The notes under the pieces were generated by a model. It saw only the letters and a list, made by a program, of their open reading frames with translations, was not told the DNA's origin and made no database searches. This document shows, in pieces, positions 770 through 31,059 of a DNA stretch of 64,000 nucleotides. This DNA comes from Escherichia phage dhabil, in the sequence record MN850621.1; one strand, written 5' to 3'. Made by a program: the position numbers and the translations under genes. How positions within the stretch are numbered: position 1 is the stretch's first letter; each line of letters starts with the position of its first letter.

Positions 770-1270
770 TTAAATCTTATCTTTACCGTATTCCATGCAC
801 TGTTCTACTGCAGCAGGCACTTTGGTCTTAAGCTTGTTGATTTGTTTCTTATAATCGCGCGCCTTATCGAAGCTCTCGGTTTCGAGCATTTCGTAATAAC
901 GGGCCTCGTGGACGGAAATCTGTAGATTGATATGGTTTACACACATCGCGTACAGTTTCTGCTTTTTGTACAAATCATCTTGGCGCTTCATTTCTGCCTG
1001 GTGTTTGGCTAGTACCGCTTCACGCTTAGACTCTTGTTCACGTTGGAATTCGATTTCCCTTTGAGCATATTTTGCACAGTTATTACCACATTGATTATTA
1101 GCTCGGGTATACACAAGTCCAGAACCAGCACGGAATTTCATTTCGCCGTCGAATTGTTTCTGTTCAGCTGCAATACGAGCTTTACCAACTTCATCAGCCG
1201 AAACTGCATCGCCGTATTGGACCGCGCAACCTGATAGGAGCATACTCATTGCGATAATTAACTTTTTCAT
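770..1270 (-). CDS. putative lipoprotein
   Basis: N-terminal signal peptide with lipobox LLSGC; SD GAGGA before ATG; position downstream of imm-like gene. Confidence 0.5.
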   Translation of the reverse strand: MKKLIIAMSMLLSGCAVQYGDAVSADEVGKARIAAEQKQFDGEMKFRAGSGLVYTRANNQCGNNCAKYAQREIEFQREQESKREAVLAKHQAEMKRQDDLYKKQKLYAMCVNHINLQISVHEARYYEMLETESFDKARDYKKQINKLKTKVPAAVEQCMEYGKDKI

Positions 1271-1411: not shown

Positions 1412-1648
1412 TCATTGTTTAACGATAATGATTTGTGCGTTTGATTTACGTTCAGCGACGATAGCCCAGATTAAAGCCACTACCCAACCAATCATCGTCC
1501 ATCCTAACAGGAGATTAAGGAAGAAGATTCCGACATTGCTACGAGTGCCTCGCAGAAGAGCCAGAATCCATGGTAAAAAGTAACCAATGAACATAATAAC
1601 CAGAGAACCGAATCCTAAAACACCAGCACTAACGATTAAAGCTTCCAT
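1412..1648 (-). CDS. small two-helix membrane protein, positional equivalent of T4 imm
   Basis: 78 aa, two hydrophobic segments; immediately downstream of gene 43 as imm is in T4; early promoter cassette upstream. Confidence 0.45.
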   Translation of the reverse strand: MEALIVSAGVLGFGSLVIMFIGYFLPWILALLRGTRSNVGIFFLNLLLGWTMIGWVVALIWAIVAERKSNAQIIIVKQ

Positions 1649-1710: not shown

Positions 1711-4422
1711 TTAAAAGTCAAACATGTCAAATAATGTTGCTTTTTTCTCGTAGTCGATTTTAGCAGACTCAGTAAAACCGGTCAGAGGTTTGATAAAGGT
1801 CTTTTGGAACAGTACATTGTAGTCCATCCAACGGAGGACTTGGTCACGAATCTGAATCGGAAGTTCAATACCTGACGGCCATGCCATACAAGCTTCACCG
1901 AACGGGTTGCCTTCTTTAAGTGGCAGTACATATACCTTTTCACCATCAACGATACGAGGCATAGTCAAATCACCGGCAGAAGCACGCATGTAAGCTAAGC
2001 AACCTTTGATGTGGTACGGACATTTAGAACCAGGGAAACCGCCTTCATTATATTTCTCGATGTTGTTAGCACTGGATACTGCAGCAATGCTTACATAGTC
2101 TAGTTCGTTAAATTCCTTATTAAACTGTTTGAAATATTCTTGCAAAGAGGCCTCGCCTTCTTGAAGCATACGTCGGATACATTCTTTCAGAGCTTTCTGA
2201 ACCGCTTTAGGTGTACTTGATTTCTGGGTTTCGAGACCCATGATTTTCAAGTGTGGTTCGGCATAGCGAGTACCTTCCATGTCCCAAACGTTCAGTGCAT
2301 AACGTTTCTTGCCTGTCCAGAATCCACCAAGACCTTTAGAACCAAGTGGAGGACCAGCGATAGCTTCTCGGTCCATGAACATCAAGTGCTGTTTATTGTT
2401 CATGTATTCACACATCTCACGGAAGCCTGCATCAATAGCTGGTTCCATACGTTCACGTGCAAATTTATCTAAGAAGTCGACCCAGTGGTTGGTATCACGG
2501 AATTTGTCTTCGCCTACTTTATTGATGATTGCATCGGCCTTAACATAAATGGAGTCGGTATCACCATAGAGCACGAACTTCTGGTTTTCAGTCTTGCACA
2601 CACCATTCAGATATTCGTTAACCTTACGTTCAATCCATTGGAGGGCCATTTGACCAAACAATGTTATTGCAGTTGCGTTCCTGAGGTCATAGTAACGGAA
2701 CCATACGTTACCAAGTGCACCATAAAGGGAGTTGATAAGCAATTTACGGTTAATCTGAGCAGTCATACCTGCGACTTCAGTACGTTCGGCTTTGAACAAC
2801 ATTTCTTTTAAAGAAGAGGCTGACAATTTTTTAATCTGGGCTTTGACTTCGTCAGAGAAGTCGAAACGATAATCAACATCCAATGGACTATCAACAGACA
2901 GATTAGGATTTTCTAATGCTTCTTTAATTAACTCACCATTACGTTGAGCTGCAAGCATATAACCTTTATGTTCTTTACGTTGTAAGAACACCTTCGTGAT
3001 TTCTGTAGGAATCACACCATCACGGTCTTTATAGTACATCATGCCGTTAGGAGAGCAACTGTAGGTGTCGCTAGGACGCGGAGCAGTTCCGGCAATATAT
3101 TCATGTATCGGCGCGTTTGCGAATGTCCCTGCGATGGTCTCTGGGCTTATATTCACTTGTCGAATGATACTCGGGTACAGAGATGTAAGGTCGAAACTCA
3201 TTACATATTTGTACGCGTTAGGAATAGGTTCCTTAACGAAAGCGCCTGGATAAGGTTGAACCGCATGCGATTTGGCCTGAGGAATAACTTTACCCTGTTC
3301 TTTAAGGCTATTAAAGATAATAGCGTCCCAAGTCTTAATTGGACTGAACACCGACTGAATCTGCATCTTGGCATAGTAACCCATGTCCAGACTAAGAAGA
3401 ATGAACTGGCGTTTCATATCAATCTGCACAACACGATATACGTCGATAATGTTATAGGAAATATATCGTTGGTGGTTCGTCTCACGTAACTTGGAGATAG
3501 GACCATCATATTTCAACTTACCTACTTTCAATTCATATTCAGAAACGTAATCCAGAGAATAAGAAGGCTGGTTAGTAAAGCTGAATTTTTTATAAAGGTC
3601 GATATAATCCAGAACAGAGATACCGAACAGTGTAATAATTTCGCGAGCGCCGTACATGTTCTCGATAACTTTAACACGAGTCTTACGATGCGGGCTTAAT
3701 CGCTTAGCAGTGTTCTCACCAAACAGATTTTTCAGACGGTTATAAACGTATGGCACGTCAAATGATTCAACGTTCCATCCAGTCAAAATCACAGGAGTTT
3801 TCTGTTGCCAGAAATTAAGATACTCAAGCATCATTTCTTCTTCAGAATTAAACGGAAGATAAACGATTTTGTCAATGATTTCCTGTGGAACTTCGTCACC
3901 ACCTTCGTCTTGGAGTTTCTCAGCGATTTTAATCGACCACTCTTCGACCGTACCATAAGGTGAAACTAAAAGGTCGAATACATAGAATTTATCATCAATC
4001 GAGTCGTAGTGAGTAATGGCATCGATAGGATGTTTAGCCTGGGCAGGTTCAGGGAATCCATCAGGAGATGTTACCTCGATGTCGAAGTTAGCAATACGAA
4101 TCTTAGAAGAATCATACTTGATTTCTTTACGATAGGTATCAGACAAATAGGCTAATTTATAGTCATCCATACCAAGGGCTTCGAGACCCATATCGTCCAT
4201 GCGCTTCATCCACTGAGAAGCATCGCGCATTGAATCGAATTCTTTCTTAACACAGCCCTTACCGTAGATGTCAATATATTTTACGGCTTGCTCTGGGTTA
4301 GCATGCATAAACATTGTAGGCTTGTAAGGAACTTCACGACTACGTTCGTTACCATTTTTATCGATGTAACGTTCGAGAATATTATCACCGATTTGTTCGA
4401 CTGTCAAATAGAATTCTTGCAT
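1711..4422 (-). CDS. 43: DNA polymerase (family B), gp43
   Basis: Motifs FDIEV (exo I), DLTSLYPSII (pol A), KLLINSLYGALG (pol B), YGDTDS (pol C); about 903 aa from ATG at 4422 (track ORF starts 20 codons upstream at a non-ATG codon); SD AAGGAAA. Confidence 0.97.
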   Translation of the reverse strand: MQEFYLTVEQIGDNILERYIDKNGNERSREVPYKPTMFMHANPEQAVKYIDIYGKGCVKKEFDSMRDASQWMKRMDDMGLEALGMDDYKLAYLSDTYRKEIKYDSSKIRIANFDIEVTSPDGFPEPAQAKHPIDAITHYDSIDDKFYVFDLLVSPYGTVEEWSIKIAEKLQDEGGDEVPQEIIDKIVYLPFNSEEEMMLEYLNFWQQKTPVILTGWNVESFDVPYVYNRLKNLFGENTAKRLSPHRKTRVKVIENMYGAREIITLFGISVLDYIDLYKKFSFTNQPSYSLDYVSEYELKVGKLKYDGPISKLRETNHQRYISYNIIDVYRVVQIDMKRQFILLSLDMGYYAKMQIQSVFSPIKTWDAIIFNSLKEQGKVIPQAKSHAVQPYPGAFVKEPIPNAYKYVMSFDLTSLYPSIIRQVNISPETIAGTFANAPIHEYIAGTAPRPSDTYSCSPNGMMYYKDRDGVIPTEITKVFLQRKEHKGYMLAAQRNGELIKEALENPNLSVDSPLDVDYRFDFSDEVKAQIKKLSASSLKEMLFKAERTEVAGMTAQINRKLLINSLYGALGNVWFRYYDLRNATAITLFGQMALQWIERKVNEYLNGVCKTENQKFVLYGDTDSIYVKADAIINKVGEDKFRDTNHWVDFLDKFARERMEPAIDAGFREMCEYMNNKQHLMFMDREAIAGPPLGSKGLGGFWTGKKRYALNVWDMEGTRYAEPHLKIMGLETQKSSTPKAVQKALKECIRRMLQEGEASLQEYFKQFNKEFNELDYVSIAAVSSANNIEKYNEGGFPGSKCPYHIKGCLAYMRASAGDLTMPRIVDGEKVYVLPLKEGNPFGEACMAWPSGIELPIQIRDQVLRWMDYNVLFQKTFIKPLTGFTESAKIDYEKKATLFDMFDF

Positions 4423-4480
4423 TTCATTTCCTTTATAGACGAGTGATTGTCTTTTGTTTGTTGATGAATCATTATACTCC

Positions 4481-4503
4481 AAAAAAGGGACCGAAGTCCC
4501 TTT
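4481..4503 (-). terminator. intrinsic terminator (TTCG loop) upstream of gene 43 leader
   Basis: Minus GGGAC-TTCG-GTCCC followed by TTTTTT; then GGAGTATAAT and gene 43 SD. Confidence 0.6.
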
Positions 4504-4505
4504 GC

Positions 4506-4721
4506 TTAAATTTCTATTGTCAAACGTTTAATAGTCGGATTGCCATCTTCGCCTTTAGTTCTAATCATAGCCTGGAAGACTTGCTGACCTGGATGTAGTA
4601 ACTTATGGAGGTCCTTTTGAAATTCTATTTGGAGCTCTTCGGAAAGGTCAAAAACAGTTTGAGTTGGTGAAAGCCCGTACACCTCTTTAAGACGTTCACA
4701 CATTTCAATTTCAAGAATCAT
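4506..4721 (-). CDS. hypothetical small protein between regA and gene 43
   Basis: In-frame ATG (MILEIEM...) just after regA stop; 71 aa; start uncertain. Confidence 0.3.
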   Translation of the reverse strand: MILEIEMCERLKEVYGLSPTQTVFDLSEELQIEFQKDLHKLLHPGQQVFQAMIRTKGEDGNPTIKRLTIEI

Positions 4722-4722
4722 A

Positions 4723-5085
4723 TTAATTACCAATGGTATACTTAGACAATAGTTCCCAGTCATTTTTCTGTTTAAAGGAAATGACACGGAAATTATTAGT
4801 AATTTCGAACAATTCAGAATCGTCTACAATATCAATAAGTCCCCAATCCTTAAGAAGCTGGGCGATAGAATCGCGGCGTTGGTAGTCTTCACCATCGATA
4901 TCTACCTGGCGACCGTCCATACGCAACATCTCTTTAAAGTGGACAATATAATACCGTCCTTGCTTTTGCAAAATGTGGCAGGATTGATATAGTTTCTTTT
5001 CTTTATTATTAGCGATACCCATACGAGTCAGGGTCTCTTTCACTTTTAGGAAGTCTTCAGGTTGCTTCAGAGTAATTTCAATCAT
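4723..5085 (-). CDS. regA: translational repressor RegA
   Basis: 120 aa, MIEITLKQPEDFLKVKETLTRMGIANN... closely resembles T4 RegA; sits between gene 62 and gene 43 as in T4. Confidence 0.93.
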   Translation of the reverse strand: MIEITLKQPEDFLKVKETLTRMGIANNKEKKLYQSCHILQKQGRYYIVHFKEMLRMDGRQVDIDGEDYQRRDSIAQLLKDWGLIDIVDDSELFEITNNFRVISFKQKNDWELLSKYTIGN

Positions 5086-26857: not shown

Positions 26858-26887
26858 GAAAAAAGGTCCCACCGAAGTGAGACCTTT
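26858..26887 (-). terminator. intrinsic terminator (TTCG loop)
   Basis: Minus GGTCTCAC-TTCG-GTGGGACC followed by TTTTT, then promoter cassette. Confidence 0.6.
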
Positions 26888-26889
26888 GA

Positions 26890-27276
26890 TTATTCTAACG
26901 TTAACAAATACTTAGTCTGGTAAAAGACACCAGTGATGTCGTCCAAAGTCGATTGGATGGCCTTAGGAAGATTTTTGTAGATTTTATCAGACGCTTTAAT
27001 AAGTTCATCAAGAAAATCTATGGGGTCTTTAGGCAGTTCTGAAGCAGACGGTAGTGATGCTTTATATTCTTTGCCACTAAATCCTAAATACTGTTCACTG
27101 AACTGGTCTAGTGGTCCTTGAACTTCTGTATAATAGAAGTCATATGCTTTGTGTCTTGCATAGCTTTTGGTTTCCAAATGGGCTGACTTAAAATAGGCTA
27201 AAGAAACCAACAGCCAGCCAATATAAGAATCTACTTCAGTCCCTCGACTAAGTACGAAATCATTGAATTTCATCAT
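26890..27276 (-). CDS. hypothetical protein
   Basis: 128 aa ORF. Confidence 0.45.
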   Translation of the reverse strand: MMKFNDFVLSRGTEVDSYIGWLLVSLAYFKSAHLETKSYARHKAYDFYYTEVQGPLDQFSEQYLGFSGKEYKASLPSASELPKDPIDFLDELIKASDKIYKNLPKAIQSTLDDITGVFYQTKYLLTLE

Positions 27277-27553
27277 CTACCTTCATTAGTTTAGCGTATC
27301 GTTCTCCGATAGCCCGACCTTCAATCGAGCAAGACTCTATTGTATTGCAATTTGAAATTTTCCAAGAAGCAGTTACATAAGCCCAGTAGTCTTCGGAAGC
27401 CTTTACACTAGGTTTACTCATTTGCGCATAAACTGGCATCGCACTACTAGCAAAGGCATCCATCAATTTAGGGTCGGATTTGTTTGCTAGTGAAGATGTC
27501 GGGCTTAAACATCCAATCATAAGGATACAAGCCACTGTACGGAAAATACCCAT
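27260..27553 (-). CDS. putative lipoprotein
   Basis: Signal peptide with lipobox MIGC. Confidence 0.45.
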   Translation of the reverse strand: MGIFRTVACILMIGCLSPTSSLANKSDPKLMDAFASSAMPVYAQMSKPSVKASEDYWAYVTASWKISNCNTIESCSIEGRAIGERYAKLMKVDDEIQ

Positions 27554-27646
27554 ACAAAAGTCCTTTGTTATTTTATACGAATTTGCCTTTCGGCCTTAAC
27601 CGATAGCGATTACCAAAAGCTAAAGCTCTACGGTTAGTATTACTAT

Positions 27647-27925
27647 TTATAGCTTTTTAAGCTTACGACAATAAGAATAGAACACGTCGTTAAAATTATA
27701 TTCAACCCAATTCCTCTGTATAGGCGAGGTAATGGAAAGCATATAATGCGCTTTAATTAAATCCATTCCATTTTTATTAGGACATTCTTTATTATTAGCA
27801 TTATACGTCGCTGCTACAACTTCTATCTCTCTTTTGTAAGCCACATCATCCATGATGGGCGAAAGAACAATATAAGAGATGGCCACAGCGAACGCTAGAA
27901 TTAAAATCTTTGAATTTAGGTCCAT
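27647..27925 (-). CDS. signal-anchored periplasmic protein, rI-like by position
   Basis: N-terminal hydrophobic anchor, Cys-containing; adjacent to tk as rI is in T4. Confidence 0.35.
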   Translation of the reverse strand: MDLNSKILILAFAVAISYIVLSPIMDDVAYKREIEVVAATYNANNKECPNKNGMDLIKAHYMLSITSPIQRNWVEYNFNDVFYSYCRKLKKL

Positions 27926-27932
27926 AGTACCC

Positions 27933-28505
27933 TCAACTCGTTATTTCTATCCAGTGCTTCCTGCACAATGACACGTAAGAATCGTTGCCACCTATAGAAA
28001 CTTGGGCTCCGTCCTTAATTGCGATACCATCTTGGACCCTAGCAGTCATAGTAGCTTTACGGCCGCAATGGCACACACCTTTGTACTCAACGAGTTTATC
28101 TGCTGTAGCGAGTAATTCAGCAGAACCAGGAAACAGTTTACCCTGAAAATCAGTTCTTAGCCCATAGCACATAACTGGAACATTATAATTGTCTACTATC
28201 TTTGCCAGTTGTTTTATCTGTGCAGGTTCTAAGAACTGTGCTTCATCCACAAACACACAGTGGATATCTTTTTGAGATTCAGCCCAACGATAGAACTCGT
28301 ATAGGTCCATATCCGGAGTCACTGCATTAGCCTCTTGACTAATCCCTATACGAGACGAAATGGTATGGCTTGATTCTCTATTGTCTATCGCAGGCTTTAA
28401 AAGGAGCACGCCCATACCACGTTCTTTGTAGTTATGAGCCGCTGTTAGCAATGAAGCGGTCTTACCTGAGTTCATTGCCGCATAGTGAAAATAAAGTTGA
28501 GCCAT
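27933..28505 (-). CDS. tk: thymidine kinase
   Basis: 190 aa; P-loop AAMNSGKT, CHCG zinc motif; closely resembles T4 Tk. Confidence 0.95.
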   Translation of the reverse strand: MAQLYFHYAAMNSGKTASLLTAAHNYKERGMGVLLLKPAIDNRESSHTISSRIGISQEANAVTPDMDLYEFYRWAESQKDIHCVFVDEAQFLEPAQIKQLAKIVDNYNVPVMCYGLRTDFQGKLFPGSAELLATADKLVEYKGVCHCGRKATMTARVQDGIAIKDGAQVSIGGNDSYVSLCRKHWIEITS

Positions 28506-28514
28506 ATTACCTTC

Positions 28515-28700
28515 TTAAAGACTATTCACATAAGCAATTAATTCGTTTTCTTTCGCATCAAATCTATTAGCAAATTCTTCCTGATGTTCGGCATCTATTG
28601 GGCCGTATTCATCGTAAAAAGCGTTTGCTTCTGTATGCTCATCCAAAAGCTCATGGATAAGCTCAAACAATCTACTTTTCTGACTAATACTTAAACTCAT
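28515..28700 (-). CDS. hypothetical protein
   Basis: 61 aa ORF. Confidence 0.35.
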   Translation of the reverse strand: MSLSISQKSRLFELIHELLDEHTEANAFYDEYGPIDAEHQEEFANRFDAKENELIAYVNSL

Positions 28701-28903
28701 TTAGGTTCACCATATCGCACAAATTTAGGATGTTCGCAATAACCAGAATGAAAACCTTCACCCTTATGATTAGAGCAGCCTTTATTAGAGCAATACCACC
28801 AGTAATCATATTCGCAATTCATTTCATCGTTGCATAAAGCTGCGATTACAGGCCATTCACATTTTTCACATTTGGCCGTTTTAAGAATTCGCACTTGACT
28901 CAT
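28697..28903 (-). CDS. Cys-rich small protein
   Basis: 68 aa with CEKCEW…CSNKGC…C pattern. Confidence 0.4.
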   Translation of the reverse strand: MSQVRILKTAKCEKCEWPVIAALCNDEMNCEYDYWWYCSNKGCSNHKGEGFHSGYCEHPKFVRYGEPK

Positions 28904-29354
28904 AATCCACCACTATTAAATCAATATCAGGAGTAAACATGTCGATTAATTTAGAAACCTTGTCCCAATCACCACCAGCAATACCACAACCTATGCGCGG
29001 AATATAAATTCTTGGTTTAAACAAAAGGTCATTTGCTTGTAGATTTAATTCTATCATACAGTTTACTAAAGCACCGTAATCAAGATTAGGGCCTGGTTCG
29101 TATTGGGTGTACAAATTATAACACATACCAAACCCAGTAGGCTTATGTTTAAAAACAATAGACATGTCACCTAATTTATCACGAGAACCATATTCAGTAG
29201 TGGTCTTATCAATTTCTAATATTTTAGGATAGGCCCTTGCTAATTGACCAGCCACCCCTGAACCCATAGTATGAAAACAGTTGCACCCGTGTGCAATAAT
29301 ATTACCTTGAAGAAACAGGGCGACGATATCGCCCTTAATATAATCAATAATCAT
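28881..29354 (-). CDS. macrodomain protein (ADP-ribose binding/processing)
   Basis: GDIV…HGCNC…GSGVAGQ…IGCGIAGGDW matches macrodomain signature blocks. Confidence 0.6.
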   Translation of the reverse strand: MIIDYIKGDIVALFLQGNIIAHGCNCFHTMGSGVAGQLARAYPKILEIDKTTTEYGSRDKLGDMSIVFKHKPTGFGMCYNLYTQYEPGPNLDYGALVNCMIELNLQANDLLFKPRIYIPRIGCGIAGGDWDKVSKLIDMFTPDIDLIVVDYESSANS

Positions 29355-29707
29355 TTAGAGTTTAGCCCTCGGTTGTAAGAGTCAACGAGTCTGTCTACCA
29401 TAGACGCGCACATTTCTTTGTACTTTTTATCAGACGGAACACATTCAGTAACGTTTAGACGTTGCTCGTATCTTTTAGAAAGAGTTTTCTCTTTCATTCG
29501 GCGATGCTCGACGTCGTTCTGTCCATCTTTAAAAGCAGCTGTTATTTTTGAACTGAATTCAATAACGCATTCAGTATTACTCGGATGACAATAATCTTTT
29601 GCTGTACGGGTGGCATACTCGACAATTGAATTATTTGTATCATCAACCTGTGATGCTAATACTCCCGGAGCAATCAACATAAGCGCTATAGTCATCTGTT
29701 TAATCAT
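29351..29707 (-). CDS. secreted protein
   Basis: 118 aa with N-terminal signal peptide (ALMLIAPGVLAS). Confidence 0.45.
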   Translation of the reverse strand: MIKQMTIALMLIAPGVLASQVDDTNNSIVEYATRTAKDYCHPSNTECVIEFSSKITAAFKDGQNDVEHRRMKEKTLSKRYEQRLNVTECVPSDKKYKEMCASMVDRLVDSYNRGLNSK

Positions 29708-30247
29708 TTAATATACCGCCTCAAACATCTTTTTAGATTTTAGGTAATTGGCCTTTTCTAGAACTTCGGAAGCATATTTACTGCCTGCTTTGACATTCCA
29801 GCCCGCATTATAAGAAGCAATCGCTTTTCTCAGGTCACCTTTGTGAACATCAATCCAATAAGACAGCTCAATGTAGGCCCAAGAGGCACTGTTCTGTCGT
29901 TTTTGGACCATGCGAATTATTTCTTTGTCTGACATCTTCCAACCTACCTGTTGAACACGACTTCTTAACGTAGGCAAGTAATTTTGGAACATGCCATAAG
30001 CATGGTGCTTATCTTTATTTAAACCTTGATTAATTCCAGCAGATGATTCCTGCCATAATAATCCGGCCATTATATATCCTAATCCTTTTTGATTAGGGTT
30101 TTCTTTGAACTTTCCCGACTTTTGGTATTGTTCACCGAAAGCATACGCATAATGTAAATTATCGAGTTGTTCATTACTGAAAGTAGGCTCTACGCTATAG
30201 GCAGACATACTAACTGTCAATAGTAAAGTGGCTAATACTTTTTTCAT
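29708..30247 (-). CDS. secreted lytic transglycosylase-like protein (SLT domain)
   Basis: Signal peptide; WQESS…AYGMFQ…SYNAG fits the SLT catalytic E-S…G-L-M-Q…A-Y-N-A-G pattern. Confidence 0.5.
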   Translation of the reverse strand: MKKVLATLLLTVSMSAYSVEPTFSNEQLDNLHYAYAFGEQYQKSGKFKENPNQKGLGYIMAGLLWQESSAGINQGLNKDKHHAYGMFQNYLPTLRSRVQQVGWKMSDKEIIRMVQKRQNSASWAYIELSYWIDVHKGDLRKAIASYNAGWNVKAGSKYASEVLEKANYLKSKKMFEAVY

Positions 30248-30259
30248 GAGACCTCATTA

Positions 30260-30718
30260 TTAAAGATAGATTACTTTCGTGCTGGTTTTACCTTCTAAAC
30301 GTTTAGAATTAACAAATGCCATACGACATTTTAATGAATATCCTTTATCAGGATGTTTACGATCTACGGTCATACCCAACCATAAGGTTTTATCGGTAAT
30401 CTCGAGACGCAGTGGACGATACACTTTACCTGGGACAATTTCAGATTCTATGTCAGGAAGAGGCTCCTGGATTAAAAATTCATGGATTTCTTTAACATGA
30501 TTGTGGAGCTTCTTGAACAAAGAGAAAACATATTTTTCGTCAATTTCACGTTGGATAGCACGGTCCAACAAGTGATTAGAGTACTTAATAAAGAAAGCTG
30601 GGACACCGCTCTTAATGGCGGCTTTTTTGATGGACGCGTTAAGTTCACGAAATTCGGTTTCGAACTGACGACGTAATTTGTTGCGGCGGATGAATACTTC
30701 TGAATTAATTTCTGACAT
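30260..30718 (-). CDS. regB: endoribonuclease RegB
   Basis: 152 aa; EVFIRRNKLRRQFETEFR…HLLDRAIQREIDE closely resembles T4 RegB. Confidence 0.92.
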   Translation of the reverse strand: MSEINSEVFIRRNKLRRQFETEFRELNASIKKAAIKSGVPAFFIKYSNHLLDRAIQREIDEKYVFSLFKKLHNHVKEIHEFLIQEPLPDIESEIVPGKVYRPLRLEITDKTLWLGMTVDRKHPDKGYSLKCRMAFVNSKRLEGKTSTKVIYL

Positions 30719-30726
30719 TTTGTAAT

Positions 30727-30775
30727 CTCCTGTAGTTGATAGGTCTATAGTACCACGTCTACAGGAGATGTAAAC
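30727..30775 (-). promoter_or_regulatory. early promoter cassette upstream of regB
   Basis: GTTTAC -35; core flanked by perfect inverted repeat CTCCTGTAG/CTACAGGAG. Confidence 0.65.
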
Positions 30776-30780
30776 TGCTT

Positions 30781-31059
30781 TTAGTATTTTTCCTCAGGTT
30801 GGAAAACGGAACGACAGGCCCACATGGATGCTTCTTTCAAGCGTTCGATTGCCGTACGAATCTGGGCGAGGCGTTCATGAGTAAGGTCGAATTCTTCATC
30901 ACTCATTTTATCAACACCGGAGCATGTAAAGGCTTCAACATATTCTTCTTCTAATGCTTTAAAGATTAAGCCCAATCGAACTTCAGCATCTTTAATGGCA
31001 TTCACTTTACCGATTTTATCGTCGGTATGTGGCTTGTAACCTTTGATGTCTTCAATCAT
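30781..31059 (-). CDS. hypothetical protein
   Basis: 92 aa ORF. Confidence 0.45.
   Translation of the reverse strand: MIEDIKGYKPHTDDKIGKVNAIKDAEVRLGLIFKALEEEYVEAFTCSGVDKMSDEEFDLTHERLAQIRTAIERLKEASMWACRSVFQPEEKY

Follow-up and report, generated by a model that had tools for sequence, protein, structure and literature searches.

Introduction

In bacteriophage T4, lysis is delayed when the antiholin RI, freed of its signal peptide, binds the periplasmic domain of the holin T. That signal peptide, formerly described as a SAR domain, was shown experimentally to be a normal one that is cleaved after Ala24 (IEA|N) (PMC8385771), and the account of Golec et al. (2010) given in PMC6832632 places T4 rI.-1, rI and rI.1 in one operon with accessory effects on lysis inhibition. 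The same part of the T4 map holds vs.1 and vs. A marginal match of vs.1 to the SLT transglycosylase domain was reported by Nolan et al. (2006) for six of six T4-like genomes (PMC1524935), and that paper, in its remarks on vs.1, cites an earlier PSI-BLAST match to SLT in the 2003 review of the T4 genome. Some GenBank records already use the name "SLT transglycosylase" for Vs.1 relatives, and the annotation of Acinetobacter phage Kimel is in the same vein; the SLT likeness of vs.1 is already known and is not a new observation here. Its neighbour vs carries the label 'valyl-tRNA synthetase modifier'. Here we analyse the corresponding genes in a stretch of 64,000 nucleotides (nt) from Escherichia phage dhabil (sequence record MN850621.1), referred to as a whole as the window, with emphasis on Vs.1, on Vs, on the antiholin RI, and on a protein of 92 amino acids (aa) that is encoded next to rI.

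The reading that we prefer, and to which we give a probability of about 0.7, is that these genes make up the conserved early region regB-vs.1-vs-tk.4-...-tk-(gp099)-rI-rI.-1 of a Dhakavirus, from which four proteins would leave the cytoplasm, Vs.1 as a putative peptidoglycan-cleaving enzyme and Vs as its likely partner among them.

Results

The window belongs to a Dhakavirus, that is, a JS98-like, T4-related coliphage. Megablast of positions 27000-30800 matched 538 phage records, the best being Dhakavirus CLBP2 / Escherichia phage CLB_P2 (99.6-99.7% identity over 100%), with JS98 at 97.4%, and the annotated maps of JS98, CLB_P2 and T4 (56-67 kb) are collinear with the window. Because it is nearly identical to published genomes, the identity of the region is firm; it is both secure and ordinary, with nothing phage-specific, T4 itself having rI, vs and vs.1. 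Every gene of this ten-gene stretch is carried by the minus strand, in the order regB-vs.1-vs-tk.4-Zn-binding-tk.2-tk-92-aa open reading frame (ORF)-rI-rI.-1. Identities to T4 were obtained by BLASTP of window proteins against T4 proteins translated from the T4 record. Four of the genes are central to this report: vs.1 (29708..30247), whose 179-aa product is a putative periplasmic lytic transglycosylase of SLT/goose-lysozyme fold with predicted export (67% identity to T4 Vs.1, E 7e-90); vs (29351..29707), coding for 118 aa (45% identity to T4 Vs, E 6e-30; phrog_1256, PF26829); the gene for the 92-aa, apparently signal-anchored protein of the JS98 gp099 family (27647..27925; phrog_6298), which occupies the slot of T4 rI.1; and the antiholin (lysis-inhibition) gene rI (27260..27553), identified by the Pfam Antiholin model PF24205 (E 2e-25) and phrog_1246 "lysis inhibition" and only 25% identical to T4 RI (E 2e-9). 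No NCBIfam match was obtained for any of the four products.

Calls of export were based on sequence rules together with conservation. The N-termini of the four ORFs (27260-27553, 27647-27925, 29351-29707 and 29708-30247) each have one or two basic residues followed by 16-19 uncharged hydrophobic residues, with Kyte-Doolittle maxima over ten residues of 2.3-3.4, and the same inspection found no such leader in the Tk, Tk.2, Zn-binding, Tk.4 and RegB proteins. A crude leader rule flagged nine of 116 non-overlapping ORFs in the window, four of them within the ten-gene stretch. The hypergeometric P for this enrichment is ~0.003 if the placement of the stretch is taken as fixed and roughly 0.03 if placement is allowed for, and the enrichment of leader-bearing ORFs is therefore only modest. 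The first-pass annotation of this DNA, made from the letters alone, had proposed four exported-type proteins between 27260 and 30247, and leaders are indeed found in all four; its labels are, however, displaced by one gene.

Vs.1 combines an export-type leader with a predicted catalytic domain. The leader, MKK-VLATLLLTVSMSAYS|VE, combines a basic n-region, an uncharged h-region of 10-19 residues and small residues at -3/-1; the predicted signal peptide covers about residues 1-18, and a leader is present in 39 of 39 aligned relatives. Across these 39 sequences the columns W65, E67, S69, G85, Q88, N89, E127, W131, Y146, N147 and G149 are invariant. They include residues of an E-S motif (W65-Q-E67-S68-S69, with S68 conserved in at least 90%), of a GLMQ-type motif (G85-M-F-Q88-N89) and of an AYNxG-type motif (S145-Y146-N147-A148-G149), so that the SLT motifs WQESS, GMFQ and SYNAG picked out in the first-pass annotation are present, with their key residues conserved throughout the alignment.

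The family is large. A database search returned 100 clusters of Vs.1 homologues, several of them with a precomputed PF01464 hit or with an SLT name in UniRef ("Transglycosylase SLT domain-containing protein"), and tblastn located vs.1-like genes in 2,074 phage records, Felixounavirus and Ackermannviridae included. SLT matches at E<0.05 were obtained for 37 of the 39 relatives, the best at 1.3e-7, and a single-sequence search of the PDB with Vs.1 gave no matches. Since sequence searches gave weak matches or none, the fold was drawn from a predicted structure. The AlphaFold model, for which the input alignment was built without T4 Vs.1, has a predicted local distance difference test score (pLDDT) of 87 and a lysozyme-like, all-alpha fold, and its top Foldseek matches are the same protein families (SLT/lysozyme fold). 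At the level of alignment and model, the fold and the catalytic motifs of Vs.1 are established.

The closest described protein is T4 Vs.1 (NP_049725; phrog_600), an orthologue without substantive difference: the identity extends over the full length, and position next to regB and vs, signal peptide and E-S/GMFQ/SYNAG motifs are shared. In size and architecture Vs.1 is comparable to the small specialised lytic transglycosylases EtgA and VirB1. In contrast, identity of the window protein to EtgA, MltE, Slt70/Slt and MltF (PF01464, GH23) is only 13-18%, and Vs.1 differs from EtgA, MltE, Slt70 and MltF by a family-specific N-terminal helix (residues ~25-38, FSxxQxDNLxYAYxFGEQ). The setting also differs, insofar as Vs.1 is encoded by a lytic phage beside a small exported partner gene and not within a secretion-system operon. 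The Vs.1 of Klebsiella phage KP27 has a longer N-terminal region and is 213 aa in length.

The gene vs follows vs.1 closely. The sequence at the vs.1/vs junction of the window is ...tat taa ATG..., so that the TAA of vs.1 abuts the ATG of vs, with GAGG 11 nt upstream; the stop codon of vs in turn overlaps the start of tk.4 (ATGA). Synteny was surveyed in IMG/VR, where a pattern scan based on the alignment of vs.1 yielded 74 loci, 52 with a vs.1 at least 41% identical to that of the window and 22 that are more distant. In all 52 of the former, T4-like loci, the start of a vs-like ORF falls within -8 to +7 nt of the stop codon of vs.1. By these junctions vs is judged to be translationally coupled to vs.1. 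The pairing persists while the partner diverges: in 46 of 46 non-Dhakavirus loci mature Vs is less conserved than mature Vs.1, with mean identities to the window of 41% and 67%, respectively.

Sequence features of the Vs family point to the periplasm, while its name implies a cytoplasmic target. The leader of the window protein, MIKQ-MTIALMLIAPGVLA|SQ, has the n-region, h-region and -3/-1 residues of a signal peptide with predicted cleavage at VLA|SQ, in line with the secreted 118-aa protein proposed in the first-pass annotation. Beyond it, AlphaFold predicts a four-helix bundle (pLDDT 79) with the Cys pairs C40/C47 and C89/C100. The leader and all four of these cysteines are invariant in 26 close relatives, and three Cys columns show no variation in any of 44 distinct full-length Vs-like sequences. 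A hydrophobic leader is visible in each of the 52 Vs-like proteins from T4-like loci; five of them have a canonical LSGC lipobox, and these five would therefore be committed to the envelope. T4 Vs (NP_049724, PF26829) shows no difference in these respects, being of the same length class, with a signal-like N-terminus, four cysteines and the same place after vs.1.

Vs matches phrog_1256 at E 4e-34, and its relatives carry PF26829 "ValRS_modifier". A profile search of 1.84 billion representative proteins returned only seven clusters, and there are no relatives outside the T4-like phages from which a function could be borrowed. Among the clusters, the two most remote have retained the Cys pairs; one of these begins with a Sec leader, whereas a canonical lipobox, MKKLFVLLIVFALSGC, opens the other. 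In both cases the gene comes directly after a vs.1 with 63-65% identity to that of the window. Vs-like proteins with leader and four cysteines are also encoded after vs.1 in RB49-like and Acinetobacter phages, and two genes off in Slopekvirus. Vs was also considered as a diverged paralogue of RI or of the gp099 family, and this was rejected on hhalign probabilities of 0.04 against RI and 2.7 against the 92-aa protein. T4 Spackle (gp61.3), which inhibits the gp5 tail lysozyme, and periplasmic lysozyme inhibitors such as PliG are comparable to Vs by analogy only, as small, exported, Cys-containing proteins that act on a periplasmic muramidase, Spackle being largely helical; no sequence or fold match of Vs with Spackle, PliG or RI was found.

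A separate observation concerns the Dhakavirus Escherichia phage vB_EcoM_005, in which vs (P0105; locus L013, 4041-4298) has an in-frame internal deletion that shortens the protein to 85 aa, compared with 118; lost with it are the first Cys pair and the greater part of helices 1-2. This may be a natural loss-of-function allele.

In about 22 of the 52 T4-like loci, vs is directly followed by a gene of a third family with predicted export (~140 aa, signal peptide, two cysteines, AWE(K/Q) after the leader). Members are Acj61p138 (L011, 1049-1474), Kimel orf136 (L008, 2321-2746) and the ORF at 4324-4743 of locus L004; T4 and the window lack it. The order vs.1-vs-p138-gp099 homologue-rI is uninterrupted in Acj61, Kimel and three IMG/VR loci of Acinetobacter phages, with tk.4...tk interposed in the enterobacterial phages. 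From this comparison of gene orders, the exported genes are taken to be ancestrally contiguous with rI. The vs.1-to-rI block of the Acinetobacter phages is only a hint toward a role in lysis timing or superinfection control.

At the rI end of the stretch, the product of 27260-27553 scores 88.7 bits with PF24205 (cut-off 27). The first-pass annotation had described this protein as a lipoprotein and had assigned the rI position to the Cys-containing, anchored protein encoded next to it. Both labels are shifted: 27260-27553 is the antiholin gene itself and the anchored protein, although its N-terminus is of the signal-anchor type, occupies the slot of rI.1, with no relationship to the T4 gene of that name. 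For window RI a cleavable signal peptide is predicted, with cleavage at SLA|N behind Ala23, and the protein has a conserved pair of cysteines. In an alignment of RI from seven phages, window SSLA|NKSDP is aligned with T4 SIEA|NVDP, at T4 Ala24, and both Cys columns are aligned in seven of seven sequences, spaced as Cys-x5-Cys in the window, JS98, T4 and SP18 and as Cys-x3-Cys in Cronus, Acj61 and Kimel. In favor of the lipoprotein reading, the leader has the lipobox-like sequence LMIGC15, and similar motifs occur in RI of SP18 (ILGC) and Kimel (LVGC). However, this motif has Met at -3, Arg5 lies just ten residues upstream and the conserved signal peptidase I site follows downstream; moreover, the lipobox-type Cys, found in RI of JS98, SP18 and Kimel, is missing from RI of T4, Cronus and Acj61. 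With SLA|N aligned to the proven T4 cleavage site, we consider it unlikely that RI is a lipoprotein. Window and T4 RI thus have in common the Antiholin match, the signal peptidase site, the Cys pair and the rI.-1 gene that follows; they differ in their low identity, in the gene that fills the rI.1 slot, and in the lipobox-like leader Cys, which is an extra residue in the window.

In the 92-aa protein a transmembrane segment at the N-terminus precedes a domain, predicted to be periplasmic, with conserved CPN(K/R) and W-x3-NF-x3-F-x3-C. By BLASTP it has no match to T4 rI.1, from which it is separate as family phrog_6298; in the comparison of the two genomes, T4 has no counterpart of this ORF and the window none of T4 rI.1. 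Homologues were found by tblastn in 92 phage records, from Dhakavirus, Gaprivervirus, Erwinia phage Cronus and Acinetobacter phages. In SP18, Acj61 and Kimel the gene immediately precedes rI, and in Cronus an rI.1 homologue sits between it and rI. Because Cronus carries both, the two families are not alternatives of each other.

Transcription signals were sought as consensus matches. A site of sigma-70/T4-early type (TTTACA-16-TG-TACTAT; 30747..30774, minus strand) lies 30 nt upstream of regB and is likely to be the head of a regB-vs.1-vs-tk.4... unit, as judged by its consensus and position. The early expression assumed in the first-pass annotation is in keeping with this packed unit and its promoter-like site. 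A match to the T4 late-promoter consensus, TATAAATA (27644..27651, minus strand), is found 90 nt upstream of rI, overlapping the stop codon of the 92-aa gene. In the whole window this motif is no more frequent than expected by chance, and therefore only its position is suggestive: it suggests that rI may also be transcribed late, independently of the upstream early unit. A strong intrinsic-terminator-like hairpin with a T-run (26862..26887, minus strand; 11-bp stem with five G-C pairs) follows directly after rI.-1. Counts of promoter- and terminator-like sites in the region are not above those expected from shuffled sequence, and the boundaries of the transcription units are therefore only suggestions.

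The remaining genes, all on the minus strand, encode proteins outside the exported set. The regB endoribonuclease gene (30260..30718; Pfam REGB_T4 E 2e-69; 59% identity to T4 RegB) codes for a cytoplasmic protein and lies directly upstream of vs.1. The product of tk.4 (28881..29354) is a cytoplasmic macro-domain protein (Pfam Macro; 57% identity to T4 Tk.4/AdfM). A 2025 preprint gave its orthologue the name AdfM and showed it to shield T4 against the DarTG2 defence system (10.1101/2025.11.20.689424); tk.4 (28881-29354) is an anti-defence gene wedged among the exported genes, between vs and tk. The gene for a small Zn-binding protein of 68 aa (28697-28903; PF23895) and tk.2 (28515-28700; 51% identity to T4) are followed by the gene for the cytoplasmic thymidine kinase, tk (27933..28505; Pfam TK E 5e-57; 70% identity to T4 Tk), and rI.-1 (26890..27276; 57% identity to T4 rI.-1; DUF5856) is the last gene of the unit. 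Between tk and tk.4 the window and CLB_P2 have two small genes (28515-28903) as opposed to three in JS98 (L001, 3010-3607), a difference of ~200 nt, and the 68-aa protein has no similarity to T4 tk.3 even though JS98-type annotations label the gene 'tk.3'. Elsewhere in the window, a 166-aa protein with a canonical lipobox, MKKLIIAMSMLLSGC (770-1270, minus strand; phrog_1754), is encoded adjacent to the superinfection-immunity gene imm (1412-1648, minus strand; phrog_1039), and may be another envelope-directed protein.

Discussion

According to the reading that we favor, Vs.1 would be a Sec-exported, single-domain enzyme that most likely cleaves the glycan strands of peptidoglycan, locally in the periplasm and from early in infection. 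The evidence for an early action consists of the TTTACA-16-TG-TACTAT site upstream of regB and of general knowledge of T4. Vs, likewise Sec-exported and of lipoprotein type in some phages, would act with Vs.1 in the periplasm, either regulating or inhibiting it; judged by its topology signals and by the strict synteny, such a partnership appears to be the most economical reading. RI, once its signal peptide is removed, would bind the periplasmic domain of the holin T and thereby delay lysis, by homology to T4. The gp099-family protein, a companion of rI in several genera, might assist lysis inhibition, as its position suggests.

A number of observations weigh against this interpretation, which should be viewed with some caution. 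The SLT score of the window Vs.1 is 15.7 bits (E 0.011), below the Pfam gathering threshold of 21.3, and a Vs.1 profile run against the PDB retrieved only g-type lysozymes, at E ~0.3, with E67 placed on their catalytic Glu. Nor do the calls of promoters and terminators go beyond matches to a consensus. As to the pairing of Vs.1 and Vs, a vs-like gene is absent from all 22 of the distant vs.1-like loci of other phage groups, and Slopekvirus Klebsiella phage KP27 (L009, 1321-3096) is the sole exception to adjacency, with genes for 48 and 196 aa between vs.1 and the vs-like gene. Synteny is high everywhere in T4-like phages, and adjacency alone is therefore weak evidence of shared function. The fold search with Vs returned generic helical bundles only, with no Spackle, RI or known lysozyme inhibitor among them. 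Furthermore, vs mutations interact genetically with the host valS(ts) allele. Vs binds the cytoplasmic valyl-tRNA synthetase (ValRS), as reported by Müller and Marchin (1975/1977) according to PMC8076793, and in a transposon screen no T4 gene was depleted more than vs in M9 glucose, where a clean deletion plaqued poorly. The authors of that screen interpret the defect through ValRS, call the role of the modification unknown and do not discuss topology. A purely periplasmic Vs would not account for the ValRS binding, the medium-dependent defect and the valS(ts) genetics.

A rival view holds that Vs is a cytoplasmic ValRS modifier, that its leader is unused or its export partial, that the adjacency of vs and vs.1 is inherited, and that the exported run is a by-product of synteny. 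The classical binding data, as cited in PMC8076793, agree with it, and so does the impairment of the vs knockout specifically in minimal medium, which fits a link to translation or amino acids. The regB-rI gene order is kept across T4-like phages, so that the vs/vs.1 adjacency carries little weight, the two genes lie apart in KP27, and no structural likeness of Vs to known muramidase inhibitors was found. On the other hand, all 52 Vs-like proteins have retained a leader despite a mean identity of only ~41% in the mature part, five of them with a canonical lipobox; invariant Cys pairs of this kind are a typical trait of periplasmic proteins in the oxidised state; and the vs.1-vs pair has been kept in Acinetobacter, Aeromonas and enterobacterial phages even though Vs evolves fast. 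His-tagged T4 Vs from the cytoplasm was insoluble (PMC8076793), which is compatible, if weakly so, with a disulfide-dependent secreted protein. We regard a cytoplasmic Vs as possible, but would put it forward only tentatively.

The periplasmic partnership can also be taken further. Vs would then not primarily be a ValRS modifier but a secreted, disulfide-stapled partner of Vs.1, as inhibitor, regulator or targeting factor, the two being co-translated early as a peptidoglycan-directed module ancestrally contiguous with rI. The association with ValRS would be secondary, or would result from the mixing of compartments after breakage, and Vs.1 activity that is unrestrained or misdirected would lie behind the defect of Δvs phage in minimal medium. 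In this full form we consider the proposal doubtful.

With respect to the chemistry of Vs.1, it could be hypothesized that the protein is not a strict lytic transglycosylase but a hydrolytic lysozyme of the goose type, or else a module that binds peptidoglycan and is catalytically weak. The fold alone cannot tell lysozyme from lytic-transglycosylase chemistry, and residues 72-77, which form the loop behind the catalytic Glu, are variable and modelled with low confidence. However, in the classification of Blackburn and Clarke, E-S, GxxQ and YNxG are reportedly the signature of family-1 lytic transglycosylases, and Vs.1 carries all three; in addition, the invariant columns of the 39 relatives include no conserved acidic equivalent of the second carboxylate of goose lysozyme. 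A departure from lytic-transglycosylase chemistry seems unlikely.

Alternatively, Vs.1 could be an auxiliary or back-up endolysin, a Sec-exported muramidase that aids lysis late instead of remodelling the wall early. The modelled lysozyme-like fold with its intact catalytic Glu would allow this, vs.1 is linked with rI in Acinetobacter phages, and some GenBank records name Vs.1 relatives 'putative lysin'. One such gene, in Felixounavirus Escherichia phage momo (L087, 2001-2549), lies right after rIIA-rIIB and 1.2 kb upstream of a spanin pair. (No vs-like gene is present at the momo locus.) Yet the window has a canonical T4-type endolysin gene e a few kb away (CLB_P2 'lysozyme R'), and T4 e mutants fail to lyse; therefore, Vs.1 cannot suffice for lysis. 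Moreover, vs.1 lies in the early unit behind regB and not among the late lysis genes, and a secreted endolysin that is produced early and without regulation would kill the host too soon. A lytic role of this kind appears quite improbable, and we retain local, early wall cleavage as the preferred reading of Vs.1.

Finally, the reading of the first-pass annotation, that these are phage-specific additions unknown in T4 with a lipoprotein among them, is scarcely credible, for while absence from T4 is true of the 92-aa gp099-family gene and RI has its lipobox-like LMIGC, clear orthologues of vs, vs.1 and rI stand at the corresponding places of the T4 map (vs and vs.1 at the identities given above) and the RI leader has the cleavage site and Cys distribution described in the Results.

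The genes rediscovered here are already annotated in the T4 family, and the genome that carries them is almost the same as those of published phages; alone, the region adds little. What remains moderately interesting is the topology of Vs. In the literature searched we found no discussion of the family-wide export signature of Vs or of its invariable coupling to vs.1. These export signals sit awkwardly with a functional label that is 50 years old, and vs is, according to the recent transposon screen, the most condition-dependent T4 gene in minimal medium, for a cause that was left unexplained there. Vs.1, for its part, is a widely conserved gene of T4-like phages and, if it is an early secreted wall-cleaver, it would matter for the timing and inhibition of lysis as well as for resistance to lysis from without.

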